From IMG/VR virus record IMGVR_UViG_2896595138_000003: a stretch of 21,651 bases of DNA. One strand, given 5' to 3'. The notes under the pieces are model-generated. The model was not told where the DNA came from. It did no database searches and worked only from the letters and a program-made list of their open reading frames with translations. The translations under genes and the position numbers were made by a program. The stretch comes from a virus. Lineage: Duplodnaviria; Heunggongvirae; Uroviricota; Caudoviricetes. The number at the start of each line of letters is the position of its first letter. Positions within the stretch are counted from its first letter, which is position 1. Shown in pieces: positions 193-21,651 of the stretch.

Positions 193-200
193 AGCTTCTG

Positions 201-818
201 TTATTCCACGATAAAATTCCTAACCGAATTCAAATCCTTCAGACTATTCAGCTCTTCCTTCAGCTCCCGCTGACGGCGATAAATCTCGTCATTGCGCTCA
301 ACCTGTGCCTGAGCCATTGCTGCCGCCAGTTCTTCCAGTTCCGGCATCGACAGTTTCACCTGCTGATTATCGGCATCACCCCACGTCATCACGTCCCGTA
401 CAATGTCGGATTTCGCCGCCATTACCACCGGATAAAGGCGGCCCAGTGAGTTGGGGCCAGCATCCCAGATACGACCGTTCCATTCAAACGTGAACGGCTT
501 CGCCTCCTGTTCTGTGCGCCATGCTTCAATTCCCTGACGTCTGGCCTCTCTGGCCGCTTCCAGCATTTCTGGTGTCACAGTGAATGGGGCTATCTCACCC
601 CATTTGCCGCTTTGCAGTTCCTGCCAGATTTGCTGACCCGTCGGAGCGACATCATCAGCGGTGGCTGTGTAGGGGACTGCCTGGTCCCTGTCGTCAAAAA
701 AAACGTCACAGTCTACTGCGCCACTTTCGGTATAACGGGGATTAATGATTTTTTTAATTTCCACAGTGCATTCCTCACGATGTGCGAATAAAAAGCCCAA
801 GCATTGCGCCAGAGACAT
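201..818 (-). CDS. Putative tail-fibre assembly/chaperone protein (second copy), 205 aa
   Basis: ORF immediately downstream of and overlapping the second tail-fibre gene; acidic protein with C-terminal coiled-coil-like region; call is by position and composition, not by a recognised motif. Confidence 0.5.
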   Translation of the reverse strand: MSLAQCLGFLFAHREECTVEIKKIINPRYTESGAVDCDVFFDDRDQAVPYTATADDVAPTGQQIWQELQSGKWGEIAPFTVTPEMLEAAREARRQGIEAWRTEQEAKPFTFEWNGRIWDAGPNSLGRLYPVVMAAKSDIVRDVMTWGDADNQQVKLSMPELEELAAAMAQAQVERNDEIYRRQRELKEELNSLKDLNSVRNFIVE

Positions 819-2038
819 ATGTATCCGGCACCCCGGACAGGGCGCAATATGACCCCGGTAATGAATGCTCTGAACATCCCGTAATGAAATATTGTGGGTA
901 TACTATATGCGTTCCGGTGGGAGTACAGGGCGCTGAAATCCCCACCGGTCCCAGTCGTGAGCCTCTGTATGACCGCCCCCTGACAAGTCTGATGTCTTTA
1001 TCACCGTCAGCTTCTCCCTGGTACGCAGCAATAATCAGCCCGCCAATGTCAGGGTCTCCCCATCTGTTGCGGACAGAGCTCGCCACGATTCTGTAAATAA
1101 TATCTTCTGTGGTTATATTTATTTTCACCCAGTCAGTCAGAAATCCAGATAAGAGCCGGTAGCGGGCGTGATAAATGGGGCCGTTAATGCCGTAAAAAGT
1201 AAGGGATTTGGCTCTGCGCCACGGTTCTATTGTCTCAGGGCGTGCATCAGTCCACCGGATGCTGAGCCCCCTTCAAACCGTGTGTCGGGTATGATGATGC
1301 CGTAGGGGCCAGCAACGGAATATTCACCTGGCAGCGCATTCCTTACCCAGACCAGGAAATCATCCTCAGTGTCAAAACGGACAGTATCTTCATGCAGAAA
1401 AGCACGCCCAAAGCCGAATGCACCGGGTATCGCCAGACGGCCTTTTGTCCGGTCGTAAATGTCGCTCTGTGCTTCCATCGTGGCTGCACTTTTCAGCCCA
1501 GATTATCCCGGGACTTCTGTTGTGCCTTTTCGCCTGCTGCTGCGATTTCAGACAGATGGTTAGCCGTTTTCAGAGTGCCGGTCAGCGCAGCATCAATGTC
1601 ATTTTTGGCCTGTTCTGCTGCGCGGGCATAACCTGCGGCTGCCGCCACATCCTGCGCCGTCTGCTGTGCGTTTCCGGCTGCGGCCCCGGCGCTCTGCTGC
1701 GCCTGCGCCACCATTTCCTCAAAGCGTTTGACGACATCCGGTTTCAGGTCGCCCTCATCAGGAGCAATCAGAAAGTCATTCAGCGTGCCGGGCTTTGAGT
1801 CGTCGTATACAGCAATGTCGCCAACACAGTACTCGTTGCGCCAGTCCTGTTTCAGATACACACCATATTTTCCAGTCCGCGCATGGAAACAGTATTCACC
1901 ATCGTTTCCTGTCATCACATCAGCAACAGTGTGCATCACCACTTCCGGGGTGTTTACCCGGGATTTCAGAATAATCTGGTATCCGGACATGGGGATACCT
2001 GCGCCATCAGTCAGCGCACCTGATATCACTACAGACAT
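775..2038 (-). pseudogene. Phage tail-fibre protein, second copy, frame-disrupted (N-terminal 181-aa ORF 1493..2038, then fragments 1227..1478 and 775..1128)
   Basis: N-terminal ORF is Ala/Gln-rich like tail-fibre shafts; reading frame breaks near 1480-1495 and again downstream; followed by an assembly-chaperone gene. Confidence 0.45.
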
Positions 2039-2061
2039 AGTTTTTCTCGCGATAAATTAAA

Positions 2062-2607
2062 TCAGGAAGAACCTTCCGGAGAGACGGACCATTCAATGGC
2101 GTTGTATGAGGATTTATCAGTGATGGTGCTGAAATCCATCGCCTGCAGCGATTTCGCGTAAATACGACAGGCTTTCAGCTTTTCTTTATCTTCGTCGCTG
2201 ATTAACCCCAGCAGCAGGTCTTCTTCCCATTCCCCTGTCCGGGCACTGACCTGAGCCAGAAGGGCATCACGCTCATCTTCCGCTTTGAGTCTGTAGTCAA
2301 AGACAAATTCATCATTGCGGTAAAACCAGTAACCCGGCGCGGTAATGCGGCGGTTGGCGGTAATATCAGGAACTTCAATAACACTGGCGTTACGGGGTTC
2401 AATGCCTGTCACATCCTTACCGACCCACACCACGCGCCCGTCTCCGGTGTAAACCATTTTTATGGTGTCACTGGCGAAATTCTTCAGCTCTTCATACCAG
2501 TTTTTTCCGTCTTCTGAAAAAAGCCAGGTGACCGAATATCGTTTTGTCATCTGATATTGTTCTGCTGTTTTCGGATTACCCGCAGTAATATTTTTTAAAT
2601 GCAACAT
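2062..2607 (-). CDS. tfa: Tail-fibre assembly protein (Mu U / P2 G family), 181 aa
   Basis: N-terminus MLHLKNITAGNPKTAEQYQ...DGKNWYEE matches the conserved N-terminal motif of Mu U-type assembly proteins; lies directly downstream of the tail-fibre gene. Confidence 0.8.
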   Translation of the reverse strand: MLHLKNITAGNPKTAEQYQMTKRYSVTWLFSEDGKNWYEELKNFASDTIKMVYTGDGRVVWVGKDVTGIEPRNASVIEVPDITANRRITAPGYWFYRNDEFVFDYRLKAEDERDALLAQVSARTGEWEEDLLLGLISDEDKEKLKACRIYAKSLQAMDFSTITDKSSYNAIEWSVSPEGSS

Positions 2608-2660
2608 TGTTAAATACTCGCTACGTTATACCAGGTGCCATTAATCAGTTTTTGCAGTGG

Positions 2661-3812
2661 TCAGTAATACACACCGTCAACGTTATCCGCTGAGTTACGG
2701 CCGGTATCCGATATCGCCATCCCTGACAGCCCGTGTCCCGAAGGTGCGCAAAATCTCCACGAAACGGTGTTACTGCCGGGGCTGTAATACATTTCATGGC
2801 CATACCGTACATCCTGTACCCCCTCTGTTCGATATTTATAGCGGGCATCGAAGTTTCCGTAATTTAACGGAATTACCTGTCCGTTAACAGTGAACACTAT
2901 GCTATTATCCGGGTTTCTCTGGCTGAAAAAATGCCAGCCTGAATCATCAACAAGCTCTGCAACAACAGGCCTGGATGGATTACCCCACAAACAAAACGCT
3001 GCATTTTTCGTGGAGTTGTTGGCGCTGGATAACGTGAATTTTCTGGCAGTTCCGGCCTGAATATTCTTAAAAGCAATAGCCACGCCATTCTGAAAACGAA
3101 ATACATGCTGTCCATTAGCATAAACATCCAGCAGACCATCGCCATTTTGTTTAAACCCGGTATCGTTATCTCCTAAAACGATTGAACTTCCACCTAACGC
3201 ATTCGTCGTACCAATTCCAAGACAACCATTAATGACGGCATTAACCAGAATATTTAGTGTATCCCATTTGAGATTCATCAGGTCTTTAACCCGGCCGCCA
3301 GCGAGGCGGTGTCTCCATTTGAAATATTCATTACCGTTATCCGCCGTTTCAAACCACATGTAGGAATCGGTGTCTGCATCCGAATCATTTTTAAATCCAA
3401 TCTTCGCCCAGTCAGTATTCCGAATCCAGGCGAGGATTGAGTCGTTTTCAAAAGTAAGTCCACCGGACAAGGTATCGCCTTCCTGATGAACATAGCGTTG
3501 ATCTGACTGCTCTTTACTGTAAACCTGAAGATTATCCCGTGCCGTCCCTTTATTCTGAAGGTCTGACAGATTGTTCTTCTGCCGCAGGAATATCCTTTTC
3601 GGATCCTCAAGAAGATTTACCCAGCCCGCACTGTCGGAGCCTTCAGGATCGGTCAGGTTATCGTCTGTGGTATTCAGCCAGACCGCTGTTGTTGCGACTC
3701 CGGCGAGAATGGCTCCTTTTGCATATCCACCAATGGCCCCCGCAAAACCGGCATTATACGTGTACAAACCGCCAGCTTGGGCGAACCGTATTGCTGCGGT
3801 AATATCGTACAT
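2661..3812 (-). CDS. Phage tail-fibre protein (P2 gpH-like distal region), 383 aa
   Basis: Contains motifs typical of enterobacterial myovirus tail fibres ([50 protein letters not shown]); has its own ATG with an AAGGA ribosome-binding site; the frame stays open upstream to the IS110 boundary. Confidence 0.8.
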
Positions 3813-3844
3813 CAGACCGTTAAAATCCTTGCCGTGTGGCGGTA

Positions 3845-4073
3845 CCCCGTTACTTTATTCGTACCCTTATAATGGGGTGTTAGCCAGCCAGACCCGGCAT
3901 GATTACTGCCCCAGTCGTCCATGATCCGGGGGGGGATGTCACCGGGTCTGGTGGGGCGCTGGTAACCGCTAATAGGGGTCAGGTCAGGCACTTTTGCCGG
4001 GACCGTCTGTAACGTGGATGCCGGTACCTGCTCCCCGTGGTTATCTGGTTAACCCATATACAAGGGAGACAGA
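3845..4073 (+). ncRNA. Candidate IS110-type bridge (guide) RNA in the 5' non-coding leader
   Basis: Established knowledge that IS110-group elements encode a bridge RNA in the left-end leader; the leader here is 229 bp, GC-rich with self-complementary segments, and contains a TATAAT at 3868-3873; not verified by structure or model search. Confidence 0.35.
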
Positions 4074-5270
4074 ATGACCGAATCCAGCGATTACGAATCC
4101 GTCCAGGTCTTTATCGGCGTTGATGTCGGTAAAGATACGCATCACGCTGTTGCCATTAATCGTTCAGGTAAACGCCTGTTCGATAAAGCATTACCCAACG
4201 ACGAAAACAAACTCAGGTCGCTAATATCTGACCTGAAACAACATGGTCAGATACTGCTGGTTGTTGATCAGCCAGCTACCATCGGTGCGTTACCTGTCGC
4301 CGTTGCCCGCTCAGAAGGAGTCCTTGTCGGATACCTCCCTGGACTGGCCATGCGCCGCATAGCCGACTTACACGCCGGTGAAGCTAAAACTGATGCTCGT
4401 GACGCTGCCATCATTGCCGAAGCTGCCCGTACCCTGCCTCACGCGCTACGCACGCTGAAACTGGCTGACGAGCAAATCGCCGAACTCTCCATGCTCTGCG
4501 GCTTCGATGATGATCTTGCCGCACAGACAACGCAGGCCAGCAACCGTCTCCGCGGCCTTCTGACCCAGATACATCCGGCACTGGAGCGCGTTCTCGGTCC
4601 GAGACTTGAGTACCCGGCGGTACTCGATCTTCTCCAGCGATATCCCTCACCAGAAAAACTCGCTTCGCTGGGTGAGAAGAAGCTGGCAGCCCAGCTCTGC
4701 AAACTTGCGCCTCGTCTGGGTAAACGCCTTGCAGCAGACATAGCTCAGGCACTGGCCGAACAAACCGTCGTCGTTCCCGGCACGAATGCCGCTGCCGTAG
4801 TACTGCCACGTCTGGCACTCCAGCTCATCACGCTGCGTAAGCAAAGAGACGAGGTGGCGCTTGAGGTAGAACAGCGAGTTCTTGCTCACCCTCTTTACCC
4901 GGTCCTGACCAGTATGCCCGGAGTCGGTGTCAGGACCGCAGCCAGACTCCTCACCGAGGTCGCCTGCCGCGCCTTCGTCTCTGCCGCACATCTCGCTGCT
5001 TATGCTGGCCTTGCGCCGGTAACTCGGCGATCCGGCTCGTCAATACGCGGTGAGCATCCCTCGCGACGGGGTAATAAAGCTCTCAAACGGGCGTTGTTCC
5101 TGTCGGCCTTCGCCGCGCTCAGGGATCCGCTCTCCAGGGCTTACTACACCCGCAAAATGAGTCAGGGAAAACGACACAATCAGGCGCTTATCGCCCTGGC
5201 GAGACGACGCTGCGACGTTCTGTTCGCCATGATGCGCGACGGGACTTTTTATACCCCGCAGGGGTCATAA
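4074..5270 (+). CDS. IS110-family transposase/recombinase (DEDD RuvC-like N-terminus, IS116/IS110/IS902-type C-terminus), 398 aa
   Basis: N-terminal IGVDVGKDTHHAVAI motif and C-terminal MPGVGVRTAARLL helix-hairpin-helix region. Confidence 0.9.
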   Translation: MTESSDYESVQVFIGVDVGKDTHHAVAINRSGKRLFDKALPNDENKLRSLISDLKQHGQILLVVDQPATIGALPVAVARSEGVLVGYLPGLAMRRIADLHAGEAKTDARDAAIIAEAARTLPHALRTLKLADEQIAELSMLCGFDDDLAAQTTQASNRLRGLLTQIHPALERVLGPRLEYPAVLDLLQRYPSPEKLASLGEKKLAAQLCKLAPRLGKRLAADIAQALAEQTVVVPGTNAAAVVLPRLALQLITLRKQRDEVALEVEQRVLAHPLYPVLTSMPGVGVRTAARLLTEVACRAFVSAAHLAAYAGLAPVTRRSGSSIRGEHPSRRGNKALKRALFLSAFAALRDPLSRAYYTRKMSQGKRHNQALIALARRRCDVLFAMMRDGTFYTPQGS

Positions 5271-5442
5271 CATGCTTGACAACTTAATAGGGGCCCCCCG
5301 CTGAGACCGCTGTCATGGTCGTCGGAGGAAAACCTGAATCATACGCAGCATTACCGCTCTCTCTGGTCTACTGTGTCGCCTTGTCCGGGATACGGTTTTT
5401 ATCTCCGGTACTCGCAAAGGGGACCGCCAGCTGGCGGGTTTA

Positions 5443-6047
5443 TCACTGGCCTTCATTACGGGACTCCTTTAAAACTACTGAAACATAAACACCCGGCGGG
5501 GACGGCAGTGCACCCGACGACTGGATAATCGCCAGTTCTGCCGACGAGAGCGCGGACTCAAAGACGTAACTCATCCTCAGCCCGCCATTATTCAGAACAT
5601 AAGCCCGCCGTTTTTTTCCGAACATAAACCTCAGCATCCGGTTAATATCTGGAACGGAACAGTCAGTAATATTCGACATGGCTTTCATCAGGATCAGTCG
5701 CCGGTATATGGCATCAGTCAGGTCAACAGTCCGGGTAACCGATTTTCCGTTGTAAAACGGTGCCTGATTAAACGGGCGGGAATCATCCATTACCGGGGTG
5801 TCCATCCTAGACTCGCTGAAGCCCAGGTAATTAAAATCGTCCTTTACCGTCAGCCGGCGACTGACACCCACAATCTTTCCCCAGACATCAAGACCATACT
5901 TTTCTGCGGTATCGATGTTCCAGATAAGACCATAAAAATCACTGATAAAACTGTCGGGGAGAGCGCTGCGTTAAAGCTGTTAATGAGGGCATTGAGTCGG
6001 GAGCTGGCAGCATACTGCGCAAGCACAGTGGCAGCCACATTCTGCAC
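5443..6047 (-). pseudogene. Phage tail/baseplate protein at the gpI position, frame-disrupted (ORFs 5850..6047 and 5443..5871)
   Basis: Lies between the J-like gene and the tail fibre; two overlapping ORFs in different frames; no recognised motif. Confidence 0.35.
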
Positions 6048-6048
6048 G

Positions 6049-7284
6049 TTATGCCTCCTGGAGTTTCACACTGATATCCGACACATCCAGAACCGAAATC
6101 TCATCTATCCCGAAAGTGACAGCCGTTGTCCATGACGAACCGTCACGGCTCACAGTAAGGCCCAGAATATCAATATGTTCCGGATCGGTTTTGTAAATGC
6201 CGGCATAGTAGCGCCCGGCAGAGACAACAGAGGCAACTCTTGCCCGCAGACCACCATCTGTACCATTAAATGCGTCCAGCACGGATTGCTGTACCTGTCG
6301 GGTAATATCTGAAGGCAGGTAGTCACTTTTTTTCAGCGTCACACTGACATGCAGACTGACGGGTTTGAGTGTCTGCCAGCTGATCACGTATTCAGGATAC
6401 GGCGGATCGTACTCCTTATCTGCAACAGTGAACGTTGTGTTGCCATTCATATCAATACCCGGCGGAGCCTTACGCCAGATGGCCGCCGCGATATCTGCCG
6501 GGCTGCCGCCGTACACGCCAACATAAAGCGAACCGGGTGTTAATGGATACTGACTGACTCCGGCTTTTTGTTCTGTTTTTTTCGGATTATGGGTGACGTA
6601 AACATCCACCACGTTTTCTACCGTGGAGAGTATTTCACCCCGGATGGCTTCCAGAATATTCCGGGCATTACGGGCAACTGAATTACGTCGGCGGTTTTCA
6701 AAGTCCGCACGGGTTTCCTCATCGCTGCCCGGCACACCGGCACGGGCGTTAGTGACACCTGACCAGCCAGGTATTGCCTTATAAATTTTATTCAGCGTCC
6801 CCACAGGACAGCCGACGGGCCGGTGGACAAATTCAGAAATACCGCATCAACCTGCCCTGATGCGCCGATAGTGACGTCTGACTGACATACTTATAACCGG
6901 CCTCATCCTGCGCCATACTGCCCGCCGGGATCAGCGTGCCAACCAGCCCGGTACAGGTCGCTGTTACTGTCGTACCTGTGGCCCCACGGCGCTCCAGGAA
7001 ATAAATCCTGCCTATTGCATCCTGAAAGCGACCACTGGAAAAGTCAGGGTTGATCTGGTTAACGATATACAGCAACTGATCGTTTTTATCCGCAATAATG
7101 GCGCTTTCGCTGGATGCAAGTTGTCCCTGCGGACTGCTCAGACTGGTACTCATGGCCCGCCCAGCGCCGCCGAAAAATCAGCAAGCCTGCCGCTCAGAAT
7201 ATCCGCTTCATCCGGCACATTCAGCCCGCTATCCGAAATCTGTACAGCGGGCACTGCGGTAGAAAAAGATTTATTTTCACTCAT
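6049..7284 (-). pseudogene. Baseplate assembly protein J-like (Mu gp47 / P2 gpJ family), frame-disrupted in two places
   Basis: Three consecutive ORFs (7151..7284, 6833..7153, 6049..6804); the first ATG overlaps the stop of the upstream gene (ATGA), consistent with one ancestral gene of about 410 aa. Confidence 0.6.
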
Positions 7285-7636
7285 AGCAGTACCGTAAAAA
7301 TGTCATTATTGGTATCTGTAATACGCAGCACACCTGTTACTGTCCGGGTTTGATCAGCTGTGACCTGGCAGACAGCGGCGCTCACGGTCGGCAGTTTAAG
7401 TGCTTCCTGTTGCAGAGTGGCATTCACCAGTTGTGTGCCGGGCCAGTGTCCGAGGATGCGTGGCCAGTAAGGTATGCCAGCCGTTGAGTCGTACCAGCAC
7501 TCCCCAGAAAAGTACTGCACGCACACGCCACATCCTGAGCTACCGCATGGGGATTATCAGTAATGGCAAGATTTCCGGTATCATCAAGCAGGATATCCCA
7601 TGTCCCGGTGTCAAGAAGAAGTGATCGTGACTGCAT
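7281..7636 (-). pseudogene. Baseplate protein W-like (gp25/gpW-sized, about 118 aa), frame-disrupted
   Basis: Size and position between the V-like and J-like genes; two overlapping ORFs (7424..7636, 7281..7526). Confidence 0.35.
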
Positions 7637-7648
7637 GTTTTCTCCTGT

Positions 7649-8325
7649 TTACCGGGGTCCCTGCGTGGTTGAGCCGCCGGACTCAACGCCGCCGTGAACG
7701 TGGTTTCCAAAATCAATACCCCCGATGTTCGAACCGCCGGAAAGCCTGGACTGCCCGGTAACGTTAAGCCCCTTACTGACGGCGGTATCGCCGTTCAGCG
7801 CAATTTGTGGTGAGTTAACGGTGAAGCTTTTCGGCGCATTAATCACACCCTCAGGCGCAGATATCTCCACTTTCCAGGGAGATACAATCCGTATCTGGTT
7901 GTCATCAAATACCACAAACTGGACGGGATCACCGTTGAGCACACCACCCAGCCAGATGGCATCAGCATAATTATGGGTACGCTTTGATCCCGGCATCGCA
8001 GCCTGACGCGTGGCTTTTACCGCACTGATATCCCGATCGCAGATGGCAAGAAAACCGATATCCCCCACATGTGGCGGCATAATCACCGCATTACCGCCCC
8101 CTGTAGTCGCCATACGGGAATGTTATAAATCACCTCATGTTCAACCGGGGAACCGTCTGCTGCAACGCCCATTACCATCGGTCGGGCCTCAATAAATCCC
8201 TCTTCCACGGCTACCACCCGTCCCAGAGTGATAAACGCATGACGTCCGAGAAACTGCCGCAGCATAAAGTCCTGTGCATTGATTTCGCTGTTCACGTCTG
8301 TCGGGTTACTGAGTGGTTGTGCCAT
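7649..8325 (-). pseudogene. Baseplate assembly protein V (spike), frame-disrupted by a 1-bp change in a G-run near 8100-8106
   Basis: C-terminal Gly-rich HxH region (GGIDFGNHVHGGVESGGSTTQG) resembles P2 gpV; restoring one G in the run joins ORFs 8083..8325 and 7649..8113. Confidence 0.7.
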
Positions 8326-8424
8326 TTTCTTCAGCCCTCATCATGGTACAGTTGGAACTCCACGGACCGCCCACGGTTCGCGAAGTAATGGTGTGTATCA
8401 CCCCTATGATCGTATAATCGCCCG

Positions 8425-9173
8425 TCATATCAGGCAGTGACGATTCCAGATGCGCTGGCCTGCCAGTAAAGAGATCGGGCAGAATATCGTGGTGGCGCTG
8501 AGTCCGGTCATGGTGTAAACCGGATAGCCAGTCAGTCCGTGATCCGGCGAAATCAGTACCGGCGGAATATTCCGGTTCTGCCCTTTCGGCCAGATGGTGA
8601 CTTTCTCCACATTCCCCAGATCAATGTTAATATCGGCGGCTGAAGCGACATCCAGCATTTGTTGTACAACATTACCGGAAAAATGCGGGTCAGACAGACT
8701 GCGGCTGCCCCCTGGTTTTCAAATCCAAGCCCGACAGTTGACGCCAGCGCACGGATAATATCTGCAACCGCAACATCGCCCTTTGCGCTGAAACCTGCCG
8801 CCGGCTGATTACGCAGATTAAAATGAATCTGTCCTGTCAGAATGAGCGGAATATCCGGCGCCTGGTTGTAGTCGGCGTATGCATCAGTAATATCACCTTC
8901 AAAAATAAGCCGCCCGTCGGCCCACAGCCGCATTTTATTTGCGGTACTCTGCTCCTGTCGCCACACACCGCGCCAGCTTAAATTCGTCATATGCGCCGGT
9001 GACATTCCCCAGATATACAGCGTGATTTGTGTACCAGCCACCCCTCCATATCCGGCAATACTGGCAAAACAGCTTGCGTCGGTAATGGTCAGCATATTGC
9101 CCTGGCCATTACCAAACGTTCGTCCGTCTGAAAGAGTGAACTCCACCGTTATTTTACGTTGTCTGTAGCTCAT
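8425..9173 (-). pseudogene. Phage tail/baseplate protein upstream of gpV (hub-like?), frame-disrupted
   Basis: Real N-terminus with a GAGGAA ribosome-binding site before the ATG at 9173; frame lost after about 155 codons and continued by ORF 8425..8658; family not recognised. The 216 bp between 9174 and the IS66 end holds the 3' tail of a further tail gene cut by IS66. Confidence 0.35.
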
Positions 9174-9389
9174 ATCAGTTCCTCAGGTAACAGCCAGTAG
9201 AGCCGGTATCGGGATCCGAGCCCCGCCAGTCAGGGTCACTATTCCCCTCCGTGTCGGTAAAAAACAGGTCCCCTGAAACGGCAGGTATCCGTACCGGACA
9301 ATCCGGTTATTATTCAGACACAGCACGCCATACAGGCACGGTTCACCATTAACAATGATATCGATATACATCCCGTAGTACGCTGATTC

Positions 9390-10439: not shown

Positions 10440-10482
10440 TGAGGTGTACTGGCAATAGCGGACACTACCATTTGTTCTTTTT

Positions 10483-11300
10483 TTAAGCAGCCATCTGATG
10501 ATATTTTTCCCTGAAGGCTGCCGGGGAGATATTCCCCAGACGAGAGTGACGACGCTGACGATTGTAGAAAATCTCAATGTATTCCCGTATTACTGAGATG
10601 GCTTCATCCCGGTTATTAAAACGATAGTGGCTCAGGCTCTCATTTTTCAGCGTTCCCCAGAAGCTTTCCATCGGAGCGTTGTCGTAACAGTTACCTTTAC
10701 ACGACATTGATGTTTTCAGACCAAACTGCTCCTGTATGACCGGTAATCGTATGCGCAGTACTGTGAACCTCGATCAGAGTGGTGGATTAGCCCGGCAGGT
10801 GGGCGCTGGCTCCTGAGCGCCATAAACAGGGCTTTACCTGTCAGCTCTTTTGTCATGCGCTCTCCCATGGCGTAGCCGACAATTTCGCACGTATAAACAT
10901 CTTTGATGCCAGCGAGGTACAACCATCCCTCCTGTGTGGCAACATACGTCAGGTCCGCCACCCAGACCTGATTTGGTGCTGTAGGAGCGAACGTCTGGTT
11001 CAGCAGATTTGGCGCAACTGGCAGATTGTGGTTCGGGTTCGTAGTCGCTCTGAACTTGCGTTTCTGCTTACAGCGTAGCCTTAGCTCCTTACGAAGACGT
11101 GCCAGTCGGTCACGACCAACGATGATGCCATTCTCTGCCAGCTCCGTCTGGAGCCGCCGGGTTCCATATGTTTCGCGAGTGCGGATATGTGCCACCTTAA
11201 TCTCCAGTTTTAGCCGCTCATCACTTTGTTTTCTGTCTGAGGGTTCATGCTGTACCCGGTTGTAATAACCGCTCCTGGATACACCAAATACCTGACACAT
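10483..11300 (-). pseudogene. IS600 OrfB transposase, frameshifted (1-bp deletion CCC to CC near 10740)
   Basis: Direct comparison with intact copies B and C: TGACCCGG there versus TGACCGG here. Confidence 0.8.
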
Positions 11301-11335
11301 CGCTTCAATGGGAAATTGTTGTCGCCATTGTTCGA

Positions 11336-11638
11336 TTAACGCGTATTTTTCAGCGACTCCTGTGCAAAATACGCTGTTGCTTTTTTTAATATATCTCGCT
11401 CAAGGCGAGCTTCATTTAACGCCTTACGCAGTTGCAGAATTTCAGATTCCAGTTCAGCCACCGTGCGGGAACCAGGAGTACCGAGCCCTTTTCTGGCGGC
11501 GGTAACCCATTGTCCTAAAGTGCCTTCAGGAAGGGATAATCGGGAAGCGCCTTCACTGATCGAAAGTTGATTTTCAAGAACCGTTCTGACAGCTTCGGCT
11601 TTGAACTCTTTAGAGTAACGTTGGGTTTTTCTGCTCAT
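11336..11638 (-). CDS. IS600 OrfA (IS3-family helix-turn-helix protein), 100 aa
   Basis: MSRKTQRYSKEFKAEAVRTV...; identical in copies A and C, one substitution in copy B. Confidence 0.85.
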   Translation of the reverse strand: MSRKTQRYSKEFKAEAVRTVLENQLSISEGASRLSLPEGTLGQWVTAARKGLGTPGSRTVAELESEILQLRKALNEARLERDILKKATAYFAQESLKNTR

Positions 11639-11858
11639 TATTAGCTCCTTCTGATGCCATTCTATTTCAGGAAGGAGTGTCCGTTAAACTCAGGCTACCT
11701 CAGGTCTTCCGACGATTCTGTCATTGTTCATTAAGCAAAAGTTTCCATGCTGTTTGTGCTTATTCTAAGCAACCGGGCAGCATCATACGGGGCAATTATG
11801 GCCGCATTACCATACATGCAACTGTACATAGCTGATTACCTGGCTGACACTGAAGTGG

Positions 11859-12898: not shown

Positions 12899-13336
12899 AT
12901 GTCGCCATCATTACGCAAGGCTGTTGCAGTTGCTATTGGTGGCGGGGCTGTAGCTATAGCATCTGTGTTAATCACTGGCCCAGGTAGTAACGATGGTCTG
13001 GAAGGTGTCAGCTACATACCATACAAAGATATCATTGGTGTATGGACTGTATGTCACGGACACACCGGAAAAGACATCATGCCTGGTAAAACGTATACCG
13101 AAGCAGAATACAAAGCTCTCCTGAATAAAGACCTTGCCACTGTCGCCAGACAAATTAACCCGTACATCAAAGTCGATATACCGGAAACAACGCGCGGCGC
13201 TCTTTACTCGTTCGTTTACAACGTGGGCGCTGGCAATTTCAGAACATCGACGCTTCTTCGCAAAATAAACCAGGGCGATATCAAAGGCGCATGTGACCAG
13301 CTACGTCGCTGGACATATGCTGGCGGTAAGCAATAG
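12899..13336 (+). CDS. R: SAR endolysin / phage lysozyme R (GH24) ending at a premature TAG; the ancestral frame continues 19 codons to the TGA overlapping the Rz start
   Basis: N-terminal signal-anchor-release segment ([20 protein letters not shown]); the codon after the TAG reads [19 protein letters not shown] in frame, consistent with a W-to-amber change. Confidence 0.85.
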
Positions 13337-13392
13337 AAAGGGCTGATGACCCGTCGTGAGATTGAGCGTGAAGTCTGTTTGTGGGGGCAGCA

Positions 13393-13890
13393 ATGAGCAG
13401 AGTCACCGCGATTATCTCCGCTCTGGTTATCTGCATCATCGTCTGCCTGTCATGGGCTGTTAATCATTACCGTGATAACACCATTACCTACAAAGAGCAG
13501 CGCGACAAAAACGCAAGAGAACTGAAGCTGGCGAACGCAACCATTACTGACATGCAGCAGCGCCAGCGTGCTGCTGATGCCCTCGATGCTAAATACACGA
13601 AGGAGTTAGCCAATGCGAAAGCTGAAAATGATGCTCTTCGGCGCAAGCTTGATAATGGTGGTCGGGTGCTCGTCAAAGGAAAATGCCCTGTGCCATCCTC
13701 AGCCGAAACCTCCAGCGCCTCCGGCATGGGCAATGATGCCACCGTCGAACTCTCTCCAGTTGCTGGACGAAACGTTCTCGGTATCCGGGACGGAATCATC
13801 AGCGACCAGACAGCATTGAGAATGCTTCAGGAGTACATCAGGATCCAATGCCTTGGGGGTGCCCCTATTAAGTTGTCAAGCATGTTATGA
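13393..13890 (+). CDS. Rz: Rz inner-membrane spanin; last 8 codons and the stop are supplied by the IS110 copy 2 end
   Basis: [29 protein letters not shown]...; ATGA overlap with the endolysin frame; ORF track start 13381 is an upstream alternative start. Confidence 0.8.
13613..13819 (+). CDS. Rz1: Rz1 outer-membrane lipoprotein spanin, embedded in the +1 frame of Rz, 68 aa
   Basis: Lipobox (LIMVVGC) followed by a Pro-rich segment ([16 protein letters not shown]), fully inside Rz. Confidence 0.8.
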
Positions 13891-15081
13891 CCCCTGCGGG
13901 GTATAAAAAGTCCCGTCGCGCATCATGGCGAACAGAACGTCGCAGCGTCGTCTCGCCAGGGCGATAAGCGCCTGATTGTGTCGTTTTCCCTGACTCATTT
14001 TGCGGGTGTAGTAAGCCCTGGAGAGCGGATCCCTGAGCGCGGCGAAGGCCGACAGGAACAACGCCCGTTTGAGAGCTTTATTACCCCGTCGCGAGGGATG
14101 CTCACCGCGTATTGACGAGCCGGATCGCCGAGTTACCGGCGCAAGGCCAGCATAAGCAGCGAGATGTGCGGCAGAGACGAAGGCGCGGCAGGCGACCTCG
14201 GTGAGGAGTCTGGCTGCGGTCCTGACACCGACTCCGGGCATACTGGTCAGGACCGGGTAAAGAGGGTGAGCAAGAACTCGCTGTTCTACCTCAAGCGCCA
14301 CCTCGTCTCTTTGCTTACGCAGCGTGATGAGCTGGAGTGCCAGACGTGGCAGTACTACGGCAGCGGCATTCGTGCCGGGAACGACGACGGTTTGTTCGGC
14401 CAGTGCCTGAGCTATGTCTGCTGCAAGGCGTTTACCCAGACGAGGCGCAAGTTTGCAGAGCTGGGCTGCCAGCTTCTTCTCACCCAGCGAAGCGAGTTTT
14501 TCTGGTGAGGGATATCGCTGGAGAAGATCGAGTACCGCCGGGTACTCAAGTCTCGGACCGAGAACGCGCTCCAGTGCCGGATGTATCTGGGTCAGAAGGC
14601 CGCGGATACGGTTGCTGGCCTGCGTTGTCTGTGCGGCAAGATCATCATCGAAGCCGCAGAGCATGGAGAGTTCGGCGATTTGCTCGTCAGCCAGTTTCAG
14701 CGTGCGTAGCGCGTGAGGCAGGGTACGGGCAGCTTCGGCAATGATGGCAGCGTCACGAGCATCAGTTTTAGCTTCACCGGCGTGTAAGTCGGCTATGCGG
14801 CGCATGGCCAGTCCAGGGAGGTATCCGACAAGGACTCCTTCTGAGCGGGCAACGGCGACAGGTAACGCACCGATGGTAGCTGGCTGATCAACAACCAGCA
14901 GTATCTGACCATGTTGTTTCAGGTCAGATATTAGCGACCTGAGTTTGTTTTCGTCGTTGGGTAATGCTTTATCGAACAGGCGTTTACCTGAACGATTAAT
15001 GGCAACAGCGTGATGCGTATCTTTACCGACATCAACGCCGATAAAGACCTAGACGGATTCGTAATCGCTGGATTCGGTCAT
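13885..15081 (-). pseudogene. IS110-family transposase, copy 2, with a TAG at codon 11 (CAG in copy 1)
   Basis: Direct comparison: GTCCAGGTC in copy 1 versus GTCTAGGTC in copy 2 (15049-15051 on the plus strand); otherwise one L-to-I substitution. Confidence 0.8.
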
Positions 15082-15311
15082 TCTGTCTCCCTTGTATATG
15101 GGTTAACCAGATAACCACGGGGAGCAGGTACCGGCATCCACGTTACAGACGGTCCCGGCAAAAGTGCCTGACCTGACCCCTATTAGCGGTTACCAGCGCC
15201 CCACCAGACCCGGTGACATCCCCCCCGGATCATGGACGACTGGGGGCAGTAATCATGCCGGGTCTGGCTGGCTAACACCCCATTATAAGGGGTACGAATA
15301 AAGTAACGGGG
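15082..15311 (-). ncRNA. Candidate IS110-type bridge (guide) RNA leader, copy 2
   Basis: Same leader as 3845-4073 but differs at three homopolymer runs (C4 vs C3, C5 vs C4, C7 vs C8). Confidence 0.3.
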
Positions 15312-16145: not shown

Positions 16146-16209
16146 TGAGGTAGCCTGAGTTTAACGGACACTCCTTCCTGAAATAGAATGGCATCAGAAG
16201 GAGCTAATA

Positions 16210-16512
16210 ATGAGCAGAAAAACCCAACGTTACTCTAAAGAGTTCAAAGCCGAAGCTGTCAGAACGGTTCCTGAAAATCAACTTTCGATCAGTGAAGGCG
16301 CTTCCCGATTATCCCTTCCTGAAGGCACTTTAGGACAATGGGTTACCGCCGCCAGAAAAGGGCTCGGTACTCCTGGTTCCCGCACGGTGGCTGAACTGGA
16401 ATCTGAAATTCTGCAACTGCGTAAGGCGTTAAATGAAGCTCGCCTTGAGCGAGATATATTAAAAAAAGCAACAGCGTATTTTGCACAGGAGTCGCTGAAA
16501 AATACGCGTTAA
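16210..16512 (+). CDS. IS600 OrfA, 100 aa
   Basis: One substitution relative to copies A and C (TVPENQ versus TVLENQ). Confidence 0.9.
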   Translation: MSRKTQRYSKEFKAEAVRTVPENQLSISEGASRLSLPEGTLGQWVTAARKGLGTPGSRTVAELESEILQLRKALNEARLERDILKKATAYFAQESLKNTR

Positions 16513-16547
16513 TCGAACAATGGCGACAACAATTTCCCATTGAAGCG

Positions 16548-17366
16548 ATGTGTCAGGTATTTGGTGTATCCAGGAGCGGTTATTACAACTGGGTACAGCA
16601 TGAACCCTCAGACAGAAAACAAAGTGATGAGCGGCTAAAACTGGAGATTAAGGTGGCACATATCCGCACTCGCGAAACATATGGAACCCGGCGGCTCCAG
16701 ACGGAGCTGGCAGAGAATGGCATCATCGTTGGTCGTGACCGACTGGCACGTCTTCGTAAGGAGCTAAGGCTACGCTGTAAGCAGAAACGCAAGTTCAGAG
16801 CGACTACGAACCCGAACCACAATCTGCCAGTTGCGCCAAATCTGCTGAACCAGACGTTCGCTCCTACAGCACCAAATCAGGTCTGGGTGGCGGACCTGAC
16901 GTATGTTGCCACACAGGAGGGATGGTTGTACCTCGCTGGCATCAAAGATGTTTATACGTGCGAAATTGTCGGCTACGCCATGGGAGCGCGCATGACAAAA
17001 GAGCTGACAGGTAAAGCCCTGTTTATGGCGCTCAGGAGCCAGCGCCCACCTGCCGGGCTAATCCACCACTCTGATCGAGGTTCACAGTACTGCGCATACG
17101 ATTACCGGGTCATACAGGAGCAGTTTGGTCTGAAAACATCAATGTCGCGTAAAGGTAACTGTTACGACAACGCTCCGATGGAAAGCTTCTGGGGAACGCT
17201 GAAAAATGAGAGCCTGAGCCACTATCGTTTTAATAACCGGGATGAAGCCATCTCAGTAATACGGGAATACATTGAGATTTTCTACAATCGTCAGCGTCGT
17301 CACTCTCGTCTGGGGAATATCTCCCCGGCAGCCTTCAGGGAAAAATATCATCAGATGGCTGCTTAA
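16548..17366 (+). CDS. IS600 OrfB transposase (DDE), 272 aa
   Basis: Intact ORF; IS3-family DDE transposase, normally expressed as an OrfAB fusion by -1 frameshifting. Confidence 0.9.
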   Translation: MCQVFGVSRSGYYNWVQHEPSDRKQSDERLKLEIKVAHIRTRETYGTRRLQTELAENGIIVGRDRLARLRKELRLRCKQKRKFRATTNPNHNLPVAPNLLNQTFAPTAPNQVWVADLTYVATQEGWLYLAGIKDVYTCEIVGYAMGARMTKELTGKALFMALRSQRPPAGLIHHSDRGSQYCAYDYRVIQEQFGLKTSMSRKGNCYDNAPMESFWGTLKNESLSHYRFNNRDEAISVIREYIEIFYNRQRRHSRLGNISPAAFREKYHQMAA

Positions 17367-17545
17367 AAAAAGAACAAATGGTAGTGTCCGCTATTGCCAG
17401 TACACCTCAGTGGTGAAATAAAACCGGGCACAACACGAAGGCGCATTTCCGGTATCCATAAAGAGTCGGTCTTGTCTGTTAAATTTAAATGGTGGGAGTG
17501 CGCCTCCGGTTGTAAATAACGACATTGCTGTGTGAAGTACCAGTT

Positions 17546-17587
17546 GGCGGCATCGGTTTAATTGCTGGCTGATGTCCGCCCTTTTTA
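17546..17587 (+). terminator. Candidate intrinsic terminator: 9-bp stem (GGCGGCATC / GATGTCCGCC with one bulge), 16-nt loop, then CTTTTT
   Basis: Read from sequence; the loop is longer than typical, so moderate at best. Confidence 0.35.
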
Positions 17588-17730
17588 AAGTGAATTTTGT
17601 GATGCGGTGAATGCGGCTCAGCGCACGCGGAACAGTTAAAACAGTAAGGAAAATCCCTTATTCCGGCGTTAATTGTTAACTGGTTAACGTCACCTGAAGG
17701 CACCAGGCACCGCATCAACAAAGTTCACTT
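17587..17730. promoter_or_regulatory. Pair of about 22-bp imperfect inverted repeats (AAGTGAATTTTGTGATGCGGTG ... CACCGCATCAACAAAGTTCACTT) separated by about 100 bp, upstream of the Rha operon
   Basis: 20 of 22 positions complementary with one indel; the interval also contains two GTTAAC palindromes. Confidence 0.4.
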
Positions 17731-17752
17731 CGGTGATGAAAGGAAAGAGAAA

Positions 17753-18397
17753 ATGTTGAATGTAGCTATTGAAAACCAGAACGGGTGGAATTATAGTGCA
17801 CCTGCACCTCATAAAACGGGTGCCGGGATTGCTACCCCGAAGTCATTCACGGCGCATAACCGCGCTCAGGCGGTTTTTTTATACGTAATGCACAGCCACA
17901 TTCAAATTATGGTGGGGCGTGCGGGGCAGTCGCAAGACTGGCCGGGTTCCGTGATGACCGGTTGTAGCAACCCTGTACGTCTCACCACCCATGAGATTGC
18001 TACCTCCGGTGGTGAGTTAATCAAATTCATCGCGGAGGCTGCCATCATGGCTACTACCCTTTCTCACCCTTGTGTAACCGTAGAAAACGGTCGCGCTGTC
18101 ACTACGTCTGTTGCGGTTGCAGAGTTCTTCCACAAACGACACGACAATGTGTTACGTGCCATCGCAAATATTGAATGCTCAGATAAATTTACTGCCCTCA
18201 ATTTTGAGGCGAGCGAATACACCGACTCAACCGGGCGCAAACTCCCAATGTACCAAATCACCAAAAACGGCTTCGTTTTCCTGGTTATGGGATTCACTGG
18301 CAAAAAAGCCGCTGCATTCAAAGAAGCCTACATTGCTGAGTTCGACCGCATGGAGGCCGAACTGCGCCAGAATAACCCCCACCTGCTGACAAGATGA
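17753..18397 (+). CDS. Rha-family phage regulatory protein (pRha domain in the C-terminal half); alternative start at ATG 18047 with a GGAGG site would give a 116-aa Rha-only protein
   Basis: Motif KRHDNVLRAIANI...GRKLPMYQITKNGFVFLVMGFTGKKAAAFKEAYIAEFDRME is typical of the pRha domain; the N-terminal 98 codons have no recognised similarity. Confidence 0.7.
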   Translation: MLNVAIENQNGWNYSAPAPHKTGAGIATPKSFTAHNRAQAVFLYVMHSHIQIMVGRAGQSQDWPGSVMTGCSNPVRLTTHEIATSGGELIKFIAEAAIMATTLSHPCVTVENGRAVTTSVAVAEFFHKRHDNVLRAIANIECSDKFTALNFEASEYTDSTGRKLPMYQITKNGFVFLVMGFTGKKAAAFKEAYIAEFDRMEAELRQNNPHLLTR

Positions 18398-18597
18398 TTC
18401 CGGGTGATGGTCGCACTCTGGTTGTTCACTTCGACAAATTCGGCAATGTCGAATTCACCGAAACCGTTCCTGATGGCGCACTGGTCTGTACCCTGGAGAC
18501 TTTCCGGTTTTATCTGGAAAAACAGGGATGGACTCTTGTTAACCGGGGCGCAATTAAAAATATGACTGTGGAACAATTACTCAAAATTCATTGTTGA
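18394..18597 (+). CDS. Hypothetical small protein, 67 aa, translationally coupled to Rha (ATGA overlap)
   Basis: ORF with start overlapping the Rha stop; no recognised family. Confidence 0.5.
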   Translation: MIPGDGRTLVVHFDKFGNVEFTETVPDGALVCTLETFRFYLEKQGWTLVNRGAIKNMTVEQLLKIHC

Positions 18598-18607
18598 GGA
18601 CGCAATA

Positions 18608-18796
18608 ATGGAGACGTTATTACCAAACGTTAATACGTCTGAAGGTTGTTTTGAAATTGGTGTCACTATCAGTAACCCTGTATTTACTGAAGATGCCATT
18701 AACAAGAGAAAACACGAACGGGAGCTATTAAATAAAATATGCATTGTTTCAATGCTGGCTCGTTTACGTCTGATGCCAAAAGGATGTGCACAATGA
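18608..18796 (+). CDS. Hypothetical small protein, 62 aa
   Basis: GAGGA ribosome-binding site 8 nt upstream; its stop overlaps the next start (ATGA). Confidence 0.45.
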   Translation: METLLPNVNTSEGCFEIGVTISNPVFTEDAINKRKHERELLNKICIVSMLARLRLMPKGCAQ

Positions 18797-18984
18797 ATAC
18801 AGTATTTGCACTCGTTCTGACGGTTTTTCTTGTTTCCGGTGAACCGGTTGACATGGTTACTGGCGTATACAGCTCAATGAAAGAATGTATGACTGCCGCA
18901 GCGAAACAGAAAATTCCCGGTGACTGTTATCCGGTCGATAAAGTTATTCACCATGATAATAACGAAATCCCGGCAGGTCTTTAA
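18793..18984 (+). CDS. Small exported or membrane-anchored protein, 63 aa (N-terminal hydrophobic segment, two Cys)
   Basis: MNTVFALVLTVFLVSGEP... signal-peptide-like N-terminus; AAGGA ribosome-binding site; the ORF track extends further upstream to 18739. Confidence 0.5.
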   Translation: MNTVFALVLTVFLVSGEPVDMVTGVYSSMKECMTAAAKQKIPGDCYPVDKVIHHDNNEIPAGL

Positions 18985-19067
18985 AACAGTTCCGTAATAA
19001 ATATCCGGTTTCATTCTTATATGCCAGCAATGGCAGGGGTTCGCTCAACCTTAATTAAGGAGAAAAA

Positions 19068-19194
19068 CATGATTACCAGTTATGAAGCCACTGTTGTAAC
19101 TACTGATGACATTGTTCACGAGGTTAATCTGGAAGGAAAGCGTATTGGCTACGTGATTAAGACAGAAAATAAAGAAACCCCATTCACTGTGTGA
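19068..19194 (+). CDS. Small ORF (41 aa) whose stop codon is formed by the first bases of IS600 copy C; probably 3'-truncated
   Basis: AAGGAGAAAAAC then ATG; the TGA at 19192-19194 is the IS600 terminus TGAGG. Confidence 0.3.
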
Positions 19195-19234
19195 GGTGTA
19201 CTGGCAATAGCGGACACTACCATTTGTTCTTTTT

Positions 19235-20053
19235 TTAAGCAGCCATCTGATGATATTTTTCCCTGAAGGCTGCCGGGGAGATATTCCCCAGACGAGAGTG
19301 ACGACGCTGACGATTGTAGAAAATCTCAATGTATTCCCGTATTACTGAGATGGCTTCATCCCGGTTATTAAAACGATAGTGGCTCAGGCTCTCATTTTTC
19401 AGCGTTCCCCAGAAGCTTTCCATCGGAGCGTTGTCGTAACAGTTACCTTTACGCGACATTGATGTTTTCAGACCAAACTGCTCCTGTATGACCCGGTAAT
19501 CGTATGCGCAGTACTGTGAACCTCGATCAGAGTGGTGGATTAGCCCGGCAGGTGGGCGCTGGCTCCTGAGCGCCATAAACAGGGCTTTACCTGTCAGCTC
19601 TTTTGTCATGCGCTCTCCCATGGCGTAGCCGACAATTTCGCACGTATAAACATCTTTGATGCCAGCGAGGTACAACCATCCCTCCTGTGTGGCAACATAC
19701 GTCAGGTCCGCCACCCAGACCTGATTTGGTGCTGTAGGAGCGAACGTCTGGTTCAGCAGATTTGGCGCAACTGGCAGATTGTGGTTCGGGTTCGTAGTCG
19801 CTCTGAACTTGCGTTTCTGCTTACAGCGTAGCCTTAGCTCCTTACGAAGACGTGCCAGTCGGTCACGACCAACGATGATGCCATTCTCTGCCAGCTCCGT
19901 CTGGAGCCGCCGGGTTCCATATGTTTCGCGAGTGCGGATATGTGCCACCTTAATCTCCAGTTTTAGCCGCTCATCACTTTGTTTTCTGTCTGAGGGTTCA
20001 TGCTGTACCCAGTTGTAATAACCGCTCCTGGATACACCAAATACCTGACACAT
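19235..20053 (-). CDS. IS600 OrfB transposase, 272 aa
   Basis: Intact; differs from copy B at one residue (AMGERMTKE versus AMGARMTKE). Confidence 0.9.
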   Translation of the reverse strand: MCQVFGVSRSGYYNWVQHEPSDRKQSDERLKLEIKVAHIRTRETYGTRRLQTELAENGIIVGRDRLARLRKELRLRCKQKRKFRATTNPNHNLPVAPNLLNQTFAPTAPNQVWVADLTYVATQEGWLYLAGIKDVYTCEIVGYAMGERMTKELTGKALFMALRSQRPPAGLIHHSDRGSQYCAYDYRVIQEQFGLKTSMSRKGNCYDNAPMESFWGTLKNESLSHYRFNNRDEAISVIREYIEIFYNRQRRHSRLGNISPAAFREKYHQMAA

Positions 20054-20088
20054 CGCTTCAATGGGAAATTGTTGTCGCCATTGTTCGA

Positions 20089-20391
20089 TTAACGCGTATT
20101 TTTCAGCGACTCCTGTGCAAAATACGCTGTTGCTTTTTTTAATATATCTCGCTCAAGGCGAGCTTCATTTAACGCCTTACGCAGTTGCAGAATTTCAGAT
20201 TCCAGTTCAGCCACCGTGCGGGAACCAGGAGTACCGAGCCCTTTTCTGGCGGCGGTAACCCATTGTCCTAAAGTGCCTTCAGGAAGGGATAATCGGGAAG
20301 CGCCTTCACTGATCGAAAGTTGATTTTCAAGAACCGTTCTGACAGCTTCGGCTTTGAACTCTTTAGAGTAACGTTGGGTTTTTCTGCTCAT
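20089..20391 (-). CDS. IS600 OrfA, 100 aa
   Basis: Identical to copy A OrfA. Confidence 0.9.
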   Translation of the reverse strand: MSRKTQRYSKEFKAEAVRTVLENQLSISEGASRLSLPEGTLGQWVTAARKGLGTPGSRTVAELESEILQLRKALNEARLERDILKKATAYFAQESLKNTR

Positions 20392-20455
20392 TATTAGCTC
20401 CTTCTGATGCCATTCTATTTCAGGAAGGAGTGTCCGTTAAACTCAGGCTACCTCA

Positions 20456-21651
20456 ACATTCGCATCTGGTTCATGTTTCGAGGAAAACGATGTCGGGAAA
20501 CATTGAAAGGCTGGGAGATTACTAACAGTAACATTAAAAAGGCCGGGAATTTAAGAGCGTTGATAGTTCATGAAATCAGTTCCGGTGAATTTGAGTATTT
20601 AAGACGTTTGCCCCAGTCCAGCACTGGGGCAAAAATGGTGACAACGAGGGTCATAAAAACATTCGGGGAGCTTTGTGATATCTGGACAAAAATTAAAGAG
20701 ACAGAGTTAACAACAAACACAATGAAGAAAACGAAATCACAATTAAAAACACTCAGGATAATAATTTGTGAGAGTACCCCGATATCGCATATTCGTTATA
20801 GCGATATCTTCAACTACCGGAATGAACTGCTGCATGGAGAAACGCTTTACCTAGATAATCCAAGATCCAACAAAAAAGGAAGAACCGTGCGCACAGTTGA
20901 TAACTATATCGCCCTGCTCTGTTCGTTGTTACGTTTTGCGTATCAGTCGGGATTTATATCAACCAAACCATTTGAAGGAGTAAAAAAATTACAGCGAAAC
21001 AGAATAAAGCCTGACCCGTTATCTAAAACAGAATTCAATGCATTAATGGAAAGTGAAAAAGGACAGAGCCAAAACTTGTGGAAATTTGCCGTTTACTCCG
21101 GGCTTCGTCACGGGGAACTGGCAGCTCTGGCGTGGGAGGATGTGGATTTCGAGAAGGGAATTGTGAATGTCAGAAGAAACCTGACGATACTTGATATGTT
21201 CGGTCCCCCAAAAACAAATGCCGGGATCCGGACGGTAACATTACTGCAGCCGGCTCTTGAAGCACTGAAGGAGCAATACAAACTGACCGGGCATCATCGC
21301 AAAAGCGAAATCACTTTTTATCATCGGGAGTACGGCAGAACTGAAAAGCAAAAACTGCATTTTGTTTTCATGCCCAGGGTGTGTAACGAAAAACAGAAAC
21401 CTTATTACTCGGTAAGCAGTTTGGGTGCAAGATGGAATGCAGCAGTAAAACGTGCTGGTATTCGCCGCCGTAATCCGTACCATACGCGACATACTTTTGC
21501 CTGCTGGCTGTTGACGGCAGGAGCGAACCCGGCATTTATAGCCAGCCAGATGGGGCATGAAACTGCGCAAATGGTGTATGAAATTTACGGTATGTGGATT
21601 GATGACATGAACGACGAACAGATAGCCATGTTGAATGCGCGGTTATCGTAG
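20456..21651 (+). pseudogene. int: Lambdoid prophage tyrosine integrase, 5' end (about 14 codons) replaced by IS600 copy C; possibly Rac IntR-like
   Basis: Catalytic-domain motifs (GLRHGELAAL, HTRHTFACWLL, GHETAQMVYEIYG); the first 16 codons of ORF 20407..21651 derive from the IS600 end; the Rac-like assignment is from memory and not verified. Confidence 0.8.

Follow-up and report, generated by a model that had tools for sequence, protein, structure and literature searches.

A remnant of the dicB-type early-left operon between two inverted IS600 copies in a Rac-site prophage of Shigella

The 1.78-kb region analyzed here is almost certainly a remnant of the early-left operon (pL-type, "dicBF/kil") of a lambdoid prophage located at the Rac site of Shigella, enclosed between two inverted copies of IS600. 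The window, that is the whole stretch of 21,651 nucleotides that was analyzed (IMG/VR record IMGVR_UViG_2896595138_000003), derives from a Shigella chromosome and carries a decayed lambdoid prophage of the Rac/Qin type. From 5' to 3', the remnant reads as a KilS/DicF-like sRNA, an IsrK sRNA, a C4-type RNA, a frameshifted Rha antirepressor gene, dicB, ydfD and racC', the latter reduced to 41 codons. An earlier note on this DNA, made from the sequence alone, had presented the operon as uncharacterised. The operon is in fact already known: three of its small ORFs are named and have been studied, one is a pseudogene fragment, and the function has already been published. Its genes are well-known ones and the locus is thus ordinary, not new. 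The discovery value is small, since these are textbook cryptic-prophage genes in a decayed, IS-riddled copy that is typical of Shigella.

The dicB, ydfD and racC genes

The ORFs listed in the earlier note are all present, at 17753-18397 (214 aa), 18394-18597 (67 aa), 18608-18796 (62 aa), 18793-18984 (63 aa) and 19069-19194 (41 aa). No family had been recognised among the four small ones. Profile searches of the peptides, which the note had recommended, place three of them in named families (DicB, DUF1482 and RacC) with E values from 1e-23 to 1e-40; the fourth, the 67-aa ORF, gave no Pfam or NCBIfam match in these searches and corresponds to the C-terminus of a Rha-family protein. A plausible ribosome-binding site had also been claimed for each ORF. 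This holds for the 62-aa (GAGGA), 63-aa (AAGGA) and 41-aa (AAGGAG) ORFs but not for the 67-aa ORF, which is not preceded by any Shine-Dalgarno sequence.

The 62-aa ORF (18608-18796, plus strand) is an intact dicB gene coding for the cell-division inhibitor. Its product matches PF05358 (135.8 bits for a cutoff of 27, E 3.8e-40) and NF049927 (134.6 bits for a cutoff of 100) over positions 1-62 of 62, and 60 of its 62 residues (97%) are identical to K-12 DicB, the substitutions being K2E and Q36H. K-12 DicB acts via MinC to block Z-ring formation and division; it also inhibits ManYZ, so that ManYZ-dependent, lambda-like phages are excluded and lambda resistance reaches about 100-fold (PMC6832061). 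The dicBF operon of K-12 is under repression by DicA, with Rem as the inducing antirepressor, and its transcript is the precursor from which DicF is processed (PMC10448788).

The next gene, ydfD (18793-18984, plus strand), is also intact and encodes a lysis protein of 63 aa that belongs to DUF1482 (PF07358, 80.6 bits for a cutoff of 25, E 7.7e-23) and shares 47 of 63 residues (75%) with K-12 YdfD. It starts at the ATG at 18793 and, as the note had observed, displays a hydrophobic N-terminus (VFALVLTVFLVS) and two cysteines. The exact protein sequence is found on 382 contigs, where it is named DUF1482 family protein. As in K-12, ydfD overlaps dicB by 4 bp (ATGA, 18793-18796). YdfD from K-12 binds and inhibits IspG, leading to a division-dependent lysis that is prevented by co-expression of DicB (PMC8835842).

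The last ORF (19069-19191, plus strand) comprises 41 of the 91 codons of racC. It covers positions 1-41 of NF007306 (E 1.9e-24) and, with 85.6 bits where the cutoff is 171, is a truncated pseudogene and not a full-length RacC. Its product is identical to K-12 RacC at 39 of 40 residues (98%), and the DNA at 19020-19191 is 95% identical to K-12 Rac. The gene had been described as cut by an IS600 copy, and indeed its TGA stop codon consists of the first three bases of that element (19192-19194). RacC has been reported to block the retron toxin RcaT (bioRxiv 10.1101/2020.06.22.160242). The idea that these small genes could be host-takeover, exclusion or anti-defence factors, offered in the earlier note as a guess, agrees with the published work on DicB, YdfD and RacC. 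As their genes are both broken, the antirepressor and RacC would be non-functional in this strain, and dicB and ydfD would be the sole potentially functional genes of the remnant.

The antirepressor pseudogene

Upstream of dicB lies a pseudogene of a Rha-family antirepressor (18047-18597, plus strand). Its Rha domain scores well above the cutoffs, with 112 bits for PF09669 (Phage_pRha; cutoff 29.9, E 2e-32) and 114.8 bits for TIGR02681 (cutoff 45.95, E 2e-33). The frame is however interrupted: compared with five intact homologues, one base is missing between 18376 and 18377, leaving an N-terminal part that stops at 18395-18397 and the 67-aa ORF (18394-18597). In the alignment with the E. coli sequence VL7S7, the junction is AATAAC-CCCCACC here and AATAACACCCCACC there, the missing base following position 18376. 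In four E. coli genomes, the antirepressor is a single ORF of 283-284 aa ending just before dicB. Likewise, proteins of 281 aa from S. boydii and S. sonnei are 99% identical to both pieces of the window and read the junction as "...RQNNTPPADKMIPGDG...". The single-ORF homologues thus read through the junction, so that the methionine annotated as the start of the 67-aa ORF is internal. The two ATGA stop/start overlaps pointed out previously (18394-18397 and 18793-18796) both exist, but only that of dicB and ydfD reflects a conserved coupling, the one between Rha and the 67-aa ORF being a by-product of the 1-bp deletion.

One could assume that the 67-aa ORF is a real gene, namely that the antirepressor has been split and that the ATGA at 18394-18397 couples the separate translation of its C-terminal domain to that of the preceding part. 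Annotations of 4 contigs, that of S. boydii 5216-82 among them, contain exactly this 67-aa ORF, and its domain fits the C-termini of phrog_995 (a family of Rha-type regulators) and of phrog_2379 (antirepressors); both observations are compatible with this idea. We nonetheless consider it very improbable, since the ORF lacks an upstream Shine-Dalgarno sequence, its methionine is internal in every intact homologue and replaced by an isoleucine in strain RMDEC465, and the 99%-identical S. boydii protein is made from one ORF of 281 aa. In addition, other copies of the antirepressor, P0010 and P0011 among them, carry breaks at other positions, caused by another frameshift, by fusion to DicB or by inserted IS elements; breaks at differing places are the pattern expected from pseudogene decay. 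The 67-aa peptide retrieved nothing from 50,697 phage records by tblastn, and a large search among proteins yielded nothing but pieces of Rha-family members. The 67-aa ORF is thus the C-terminal domain of the Rha-family antirepressor, not a gene. An assembly error could in principle account for the frameshift, but the presence of the identical ORF on 4 contigs speaks against it.

These data also bear on the larger proposal of the earlier note, that four small co-transcribed genes form a novel operon whose products would be new factors of host takeover, exclusion or anti-defence. The small ORFs and their overlaps do exist, three of the ORFs have real ribosome-binding sites, and the guessed functional class fits the published roles of DicB, YdfD and RacC. 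However, every ORF belongs to a named family, two of them have been under experimental study for decades, DicB and RacC are 97-98% identical to their K-12 counterparts, and the fourth "gene" is a frameshift fragment. Moreover, in intact related prophages, whose synteny the note had suggested checking, the 67-aa ORF is fused to Rha, which is the kind of finding that the note had itself named as counting against it. This proposal therefore has next to nothing left to recommend it, and we retain the interpretation as a remnant of the known dicB-type operon.

The IS600 copies and the Rac site

A repeat search confirmed that the operon is bounded by two IS600 copies, as had been noticed previously. 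They form an inverted pair of 1264 bp (16146-17409 and 19192-20455) that encloses 1782 bp, and they are 99.8% identical to each other. The left copy (copy B, plus strand) contains orfA (16210-16512) and orfB (16548-17366); the right one (copy C) lies on the minus strand. Their assignment to IS600, of the IS3 family, relies on the 1264-bp length, the orfA/orfB organization, the terminal repeats, and matches in E. coli that are annotated as IS600 family. A third copy is present in the window at 10440-11702.

Copy B separates the operon from its upstream repressor and promoter region, everything 5' of the sRNA being gone. Copy C takes the place of the rest of racC, recE, recT, ralR, xisR and the first ~13 codons of intR; accordingly, positions 197-4641 of the K-12 Rac comparison sequence (L003) are absent from the window. 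Target-site duplications were sought around both copies and none was found, the outer flanks being AAG and ACA and the inner flanks likewise showing none. This indicates IS-mediated deletions and not simple insertions. On the right side, an intR-like integrase gene devoid of its 5' end occupies 20456-21651 (plus strand) and is 95% identical to K-12 intR; at the DNA level, 20456-20651 is 95% identical to intR minus its ~13 first codons. In the contig CP026845.1 (GCA_002950375.1), which is the only one to carry the exact 214-aa product, the integrase ORF (20407-21651) precedes ttcA-like and dbpA genes, i.e. the Rac attachment site.

Two nearly identical inverted IS600 copies on both sides of a 1.78-kb cargo could also evoke a composite transposon mobilising dicB and ydfD. 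Neither the outer flanks (AAG and ACA) nor the inner ones are target-site duplications, though, and the segment is native in both its orientation and its position relative to intR, ttcA and dbpA; the exact 214-aa product, besides, occurs on a single contig. We thus give hardly any credit to mobilisation as a unit, and favor a resident operon trimmed on both sides by IS600.

Since the repressor and the main promoter region are gone, expression of dicB and ydfD would depend on read-through, either from internal KilS/IsrK promoters or from IS600. Such read-through would presumably have to pass two terminators before reaching dicB and ydfD. If it does occur, two intact and toxic genes deprived of their cognate repressor region could alter filamentation or phage susceptibility of the strain.

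The comparison with K-12 Rac, whose early-left operon (kilS-kilR-ydaE-racC-recE-recT...xisR-intR) is located at ttcA, shows the same site, with the integrase gene next to ttcA-like and dbpA genes, and three stretches of homologous DNA: the kilS region (17410-17730, 84%), the 5' part of racC (19020-19191, 95%) and intR (20456-20651, 95%). The window differs from Rac in having a cassette and dicB-ydfD in place of kilR-ydaE, and IS600 from codon 42 of racC to codon ~13 of intR. The K-12 Qin dicBF operon (ydfABC-dicF-dicB-ydfDE) resembles the remnant by its dicB (97%) and ydfD (75% at the amino-acid level), whose order and 4-bp overlap are unchanged, and by a terminator-bearing sRNA upstream, the leader between this sRNA and dicB being conserved (82% over 198 nt). 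On the other hand, the window lacks ydfABC, dicA/dicC and the promoter dicBp because of IS600, its sRNA is KilS-like and not a canonical DicF, an 863-bp isrK-C4-Rha cassette is intercalated between the sRNA and dicB, and ydfD is followed by racC' whereas it is followed by ydfE in Qin.

Other mobile elements are present in the window. Two inverted copies of ~1.46 kb of an IS110-family element, 99.6% identical, are found at 3845-5299 and 13856-15311; one breaks tail/baseplate genes and the other comes after the lysozyme and Rz lysis genes (12899-13890). Positions 231-9389 form a tail-fibre/baseplate cluster of the myovirus type, with 97-98% identity to enteroinvasive E. coli prophages, and this cluster adjoins ipaH in strain RMDEC465.

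RNA genes upstream of dicB and the nested cassette

The first element of the remnant is a KilS/DicF-like sRNA (~17492-17586, plus strand) with a Rho-independent terminator (stem at 17549-17576 followed by a T run). The surrounding DNA (17410-17730) shares 84% identity with the kilS-kilR leader of K-12 Rac, and it is this homology to the Rac kilS region that designates the sRNA as KilS-like, KilS itself having been described in PMC8175672. With the DicF model (RF00039), the sequence reaches only 28.6 bits against a gathering score of 48, and its hairpin loop does not contain the loop sequence of K-12 DicF. Duplex prediction between the sRNA variants and the ftsZ translation-initiation region was non-discriminating, K-12 DicF itself giving only z = -1.6. 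Hairpin loops of DicF/KilS-type sRNAs exist in at least three variants within otherwise near-identical leaders (17531-17586 compared with loci L001, L006 and L007). A sub-threshold match to the Rfam family STnc100 (29 bits against a gathering score of 47) was obtained at 17593-17722, in a leader common to Qin, Rac and the window locus. In E. coli (L007-L009), the sRNA-cassette leader also bears, some 30-113 bp 5' of the Rha ORF, an 84-bp pseudogene that RefSeq names "DicB, missing C-terminus".

Between this sRNA and dicB lies the 863-bp isrK-C4-antirepressor cassette (17728-18590, plus strand), which alignments show to be absent from K-12 Qin and Rac. An imperfect direct repeat of 9 bp marks its two borders (CAAAGTTCA at 17719-17727 and CAAAATTCA at 18582-18590), and K-12 still has the end of the Rha gene, with its final codons and stop, 5' of dicB. 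The retention of this 3' end suggests that K-12 lost the cassette by a microhomology deletion. Of 5426 complete E. coli genomes, 248 (about 4.6%) have the arrangement sRNA-cassette-dicB-ydfD. In intact E. coli prophages, the order 3' of the CI/Cro-type switch is ydfA-ydfB-ydfC-sRNA-Rha-dicB-DUF1482-exonuclease-xis-int.

The 5' third of the 214-aa "Rha" ORF consists of two RNA genes, one for IsrK and one for an antisense RNA of the C4 type; neither this part nor the 67-aa ORF should be counted as protein-coding. The IsrK-type sRNA (17804-17880, plus strand) scores above the gathering score of RF01394 (64.8 bits for 50), aligns with isrK of the Salmonella prophage Gifsy-1 and ends with its own terminator (17858-17880). 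A putative sigma-70 promoter resembling PisrK (TTGAAA-17-TATAGT, 17769-17797, plus strand) lies 7 nt upstream of its 5' end; promoter calls are here consensus matches, from a scan that gave 3 sites where 2.8 are expected by chance. This promoter aligns with that of Gifsy-1 isrK (TTGACA-17-TATATT), which is required for transcription (PMC4825925, Table 1). The C4-type RNA (17905-17992, plus strand) matches RF01695 with 79 bits for a gathering score of 45. An ATG at 17909, homologous to that of Gifsy-1 orf45, opens a frame fused to the antirepressor ORF.

The loop of the second C4 hairpin is complementary to two sites. One (18026-18038, plus strand) covers the GGAGG Shine-Dalgarno sequence of the antirepressor, with a predicted duplex energy of -16.5 kcal/mol, and the other (17842-17856) is located inside IsrK. 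The loop covaries with both sites: six loop types were found in eight loci, among them Gifsy-1 (L010) and loci L012 and L013, with cognate sites at the same positions. In three further phage loci (SfV, TL-2011c and Klebsiella phi13.3), our search pattern did not find the C4 anchors. In published homologues, IsrK and C4 control antirepressor translation by RNA pairing. [quoted passage not shown] By analogy, the pairing predicted here between the C4 loop and the Shine-Dalgarno sequence would follow the logic of P1 immI, and IsrK may be a decoy that titrates a C4-type antisense RNA masking this sequence. If true, this reading would recast the published model of Gifsy-1 IsrK in P1 terms. The IsrK paper (PMC4825925) makes no mention of C4 or P1, and the P1-like covariation of C4 with the Shine-Dalgarno site, valid also for the Gifsy-1 locus, constitutes a mildly new side point.

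The cassette shares with the Gifsy-1 isrK-orf45-anrP locus (PMC4825925) the promoter, IsrK, orf45/C4 and the Shine-Dalgarno sequence and ATG of the antirepressor (18047 in the window). Fusion of the orf45 frame with the antirepressor, seen in the window, is also noted for S. dysenteriae in PMC4825925. The two loci differ in that the antirepressor N-domain is of the Rha type here (PF09669) and of the ORF6N type in AnrP (PF10543), in that the antirepressor is frameshifted in the window, and in that the cassette belongs to the early-left operon whereas the Gifsy-1 locus lies downstream of Q. BLASTP detected no similarity between the Rha N-domain and Gifsy-1 AnrP; C-terminal similarity to AnrP is weak (E 0.02) and supported only through phrog_2379. 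The occurrence of different N-domains behind the same RNA leader makes this leader a portable module.

With the P1/P7 immI locus (c4-icd-ant), the remnant has in common a C4-family RNA whose loop is complementary to an upstream site and to the antirepressor ribosome-binding site, as well as a co-transcribed cell-division inhibitor. This inhibitor is however DicB, located 3' of the antirepressor, whereas Icd precedes Ant in P1, and the antirepressor is of the Rha type. The nesting of an immI-like cassette between a KilS/DicF-type sRNA and dicB would put three riboregulators on one transcript and leave the genes for division inhibition and lysis 3' of the IsrK promoter. By comparison with P1 c4-icd-ant, one would wonder whether the division and lysis genes are functionally coupled to this cassette; we regard such a coupling as conceivable and rather doubtful. 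We found no paper describing it, and the nested cassette is a second, mildly new side point.

Finally, the Pfam family PF10554 (Phage_ASH) matches aa 14-104 of the 214-aa ORF, and this match spans almost exactly the IsrK promoter, IsrK, its terminator and C4. Copies from E. coli, Shigella, Stx2c and P88 keep the corresponding frame open, and in Gifsy-1 it is closed. For its IsrK portion at least, the Phage_ASH "protein family" looks like translated RNA genes.
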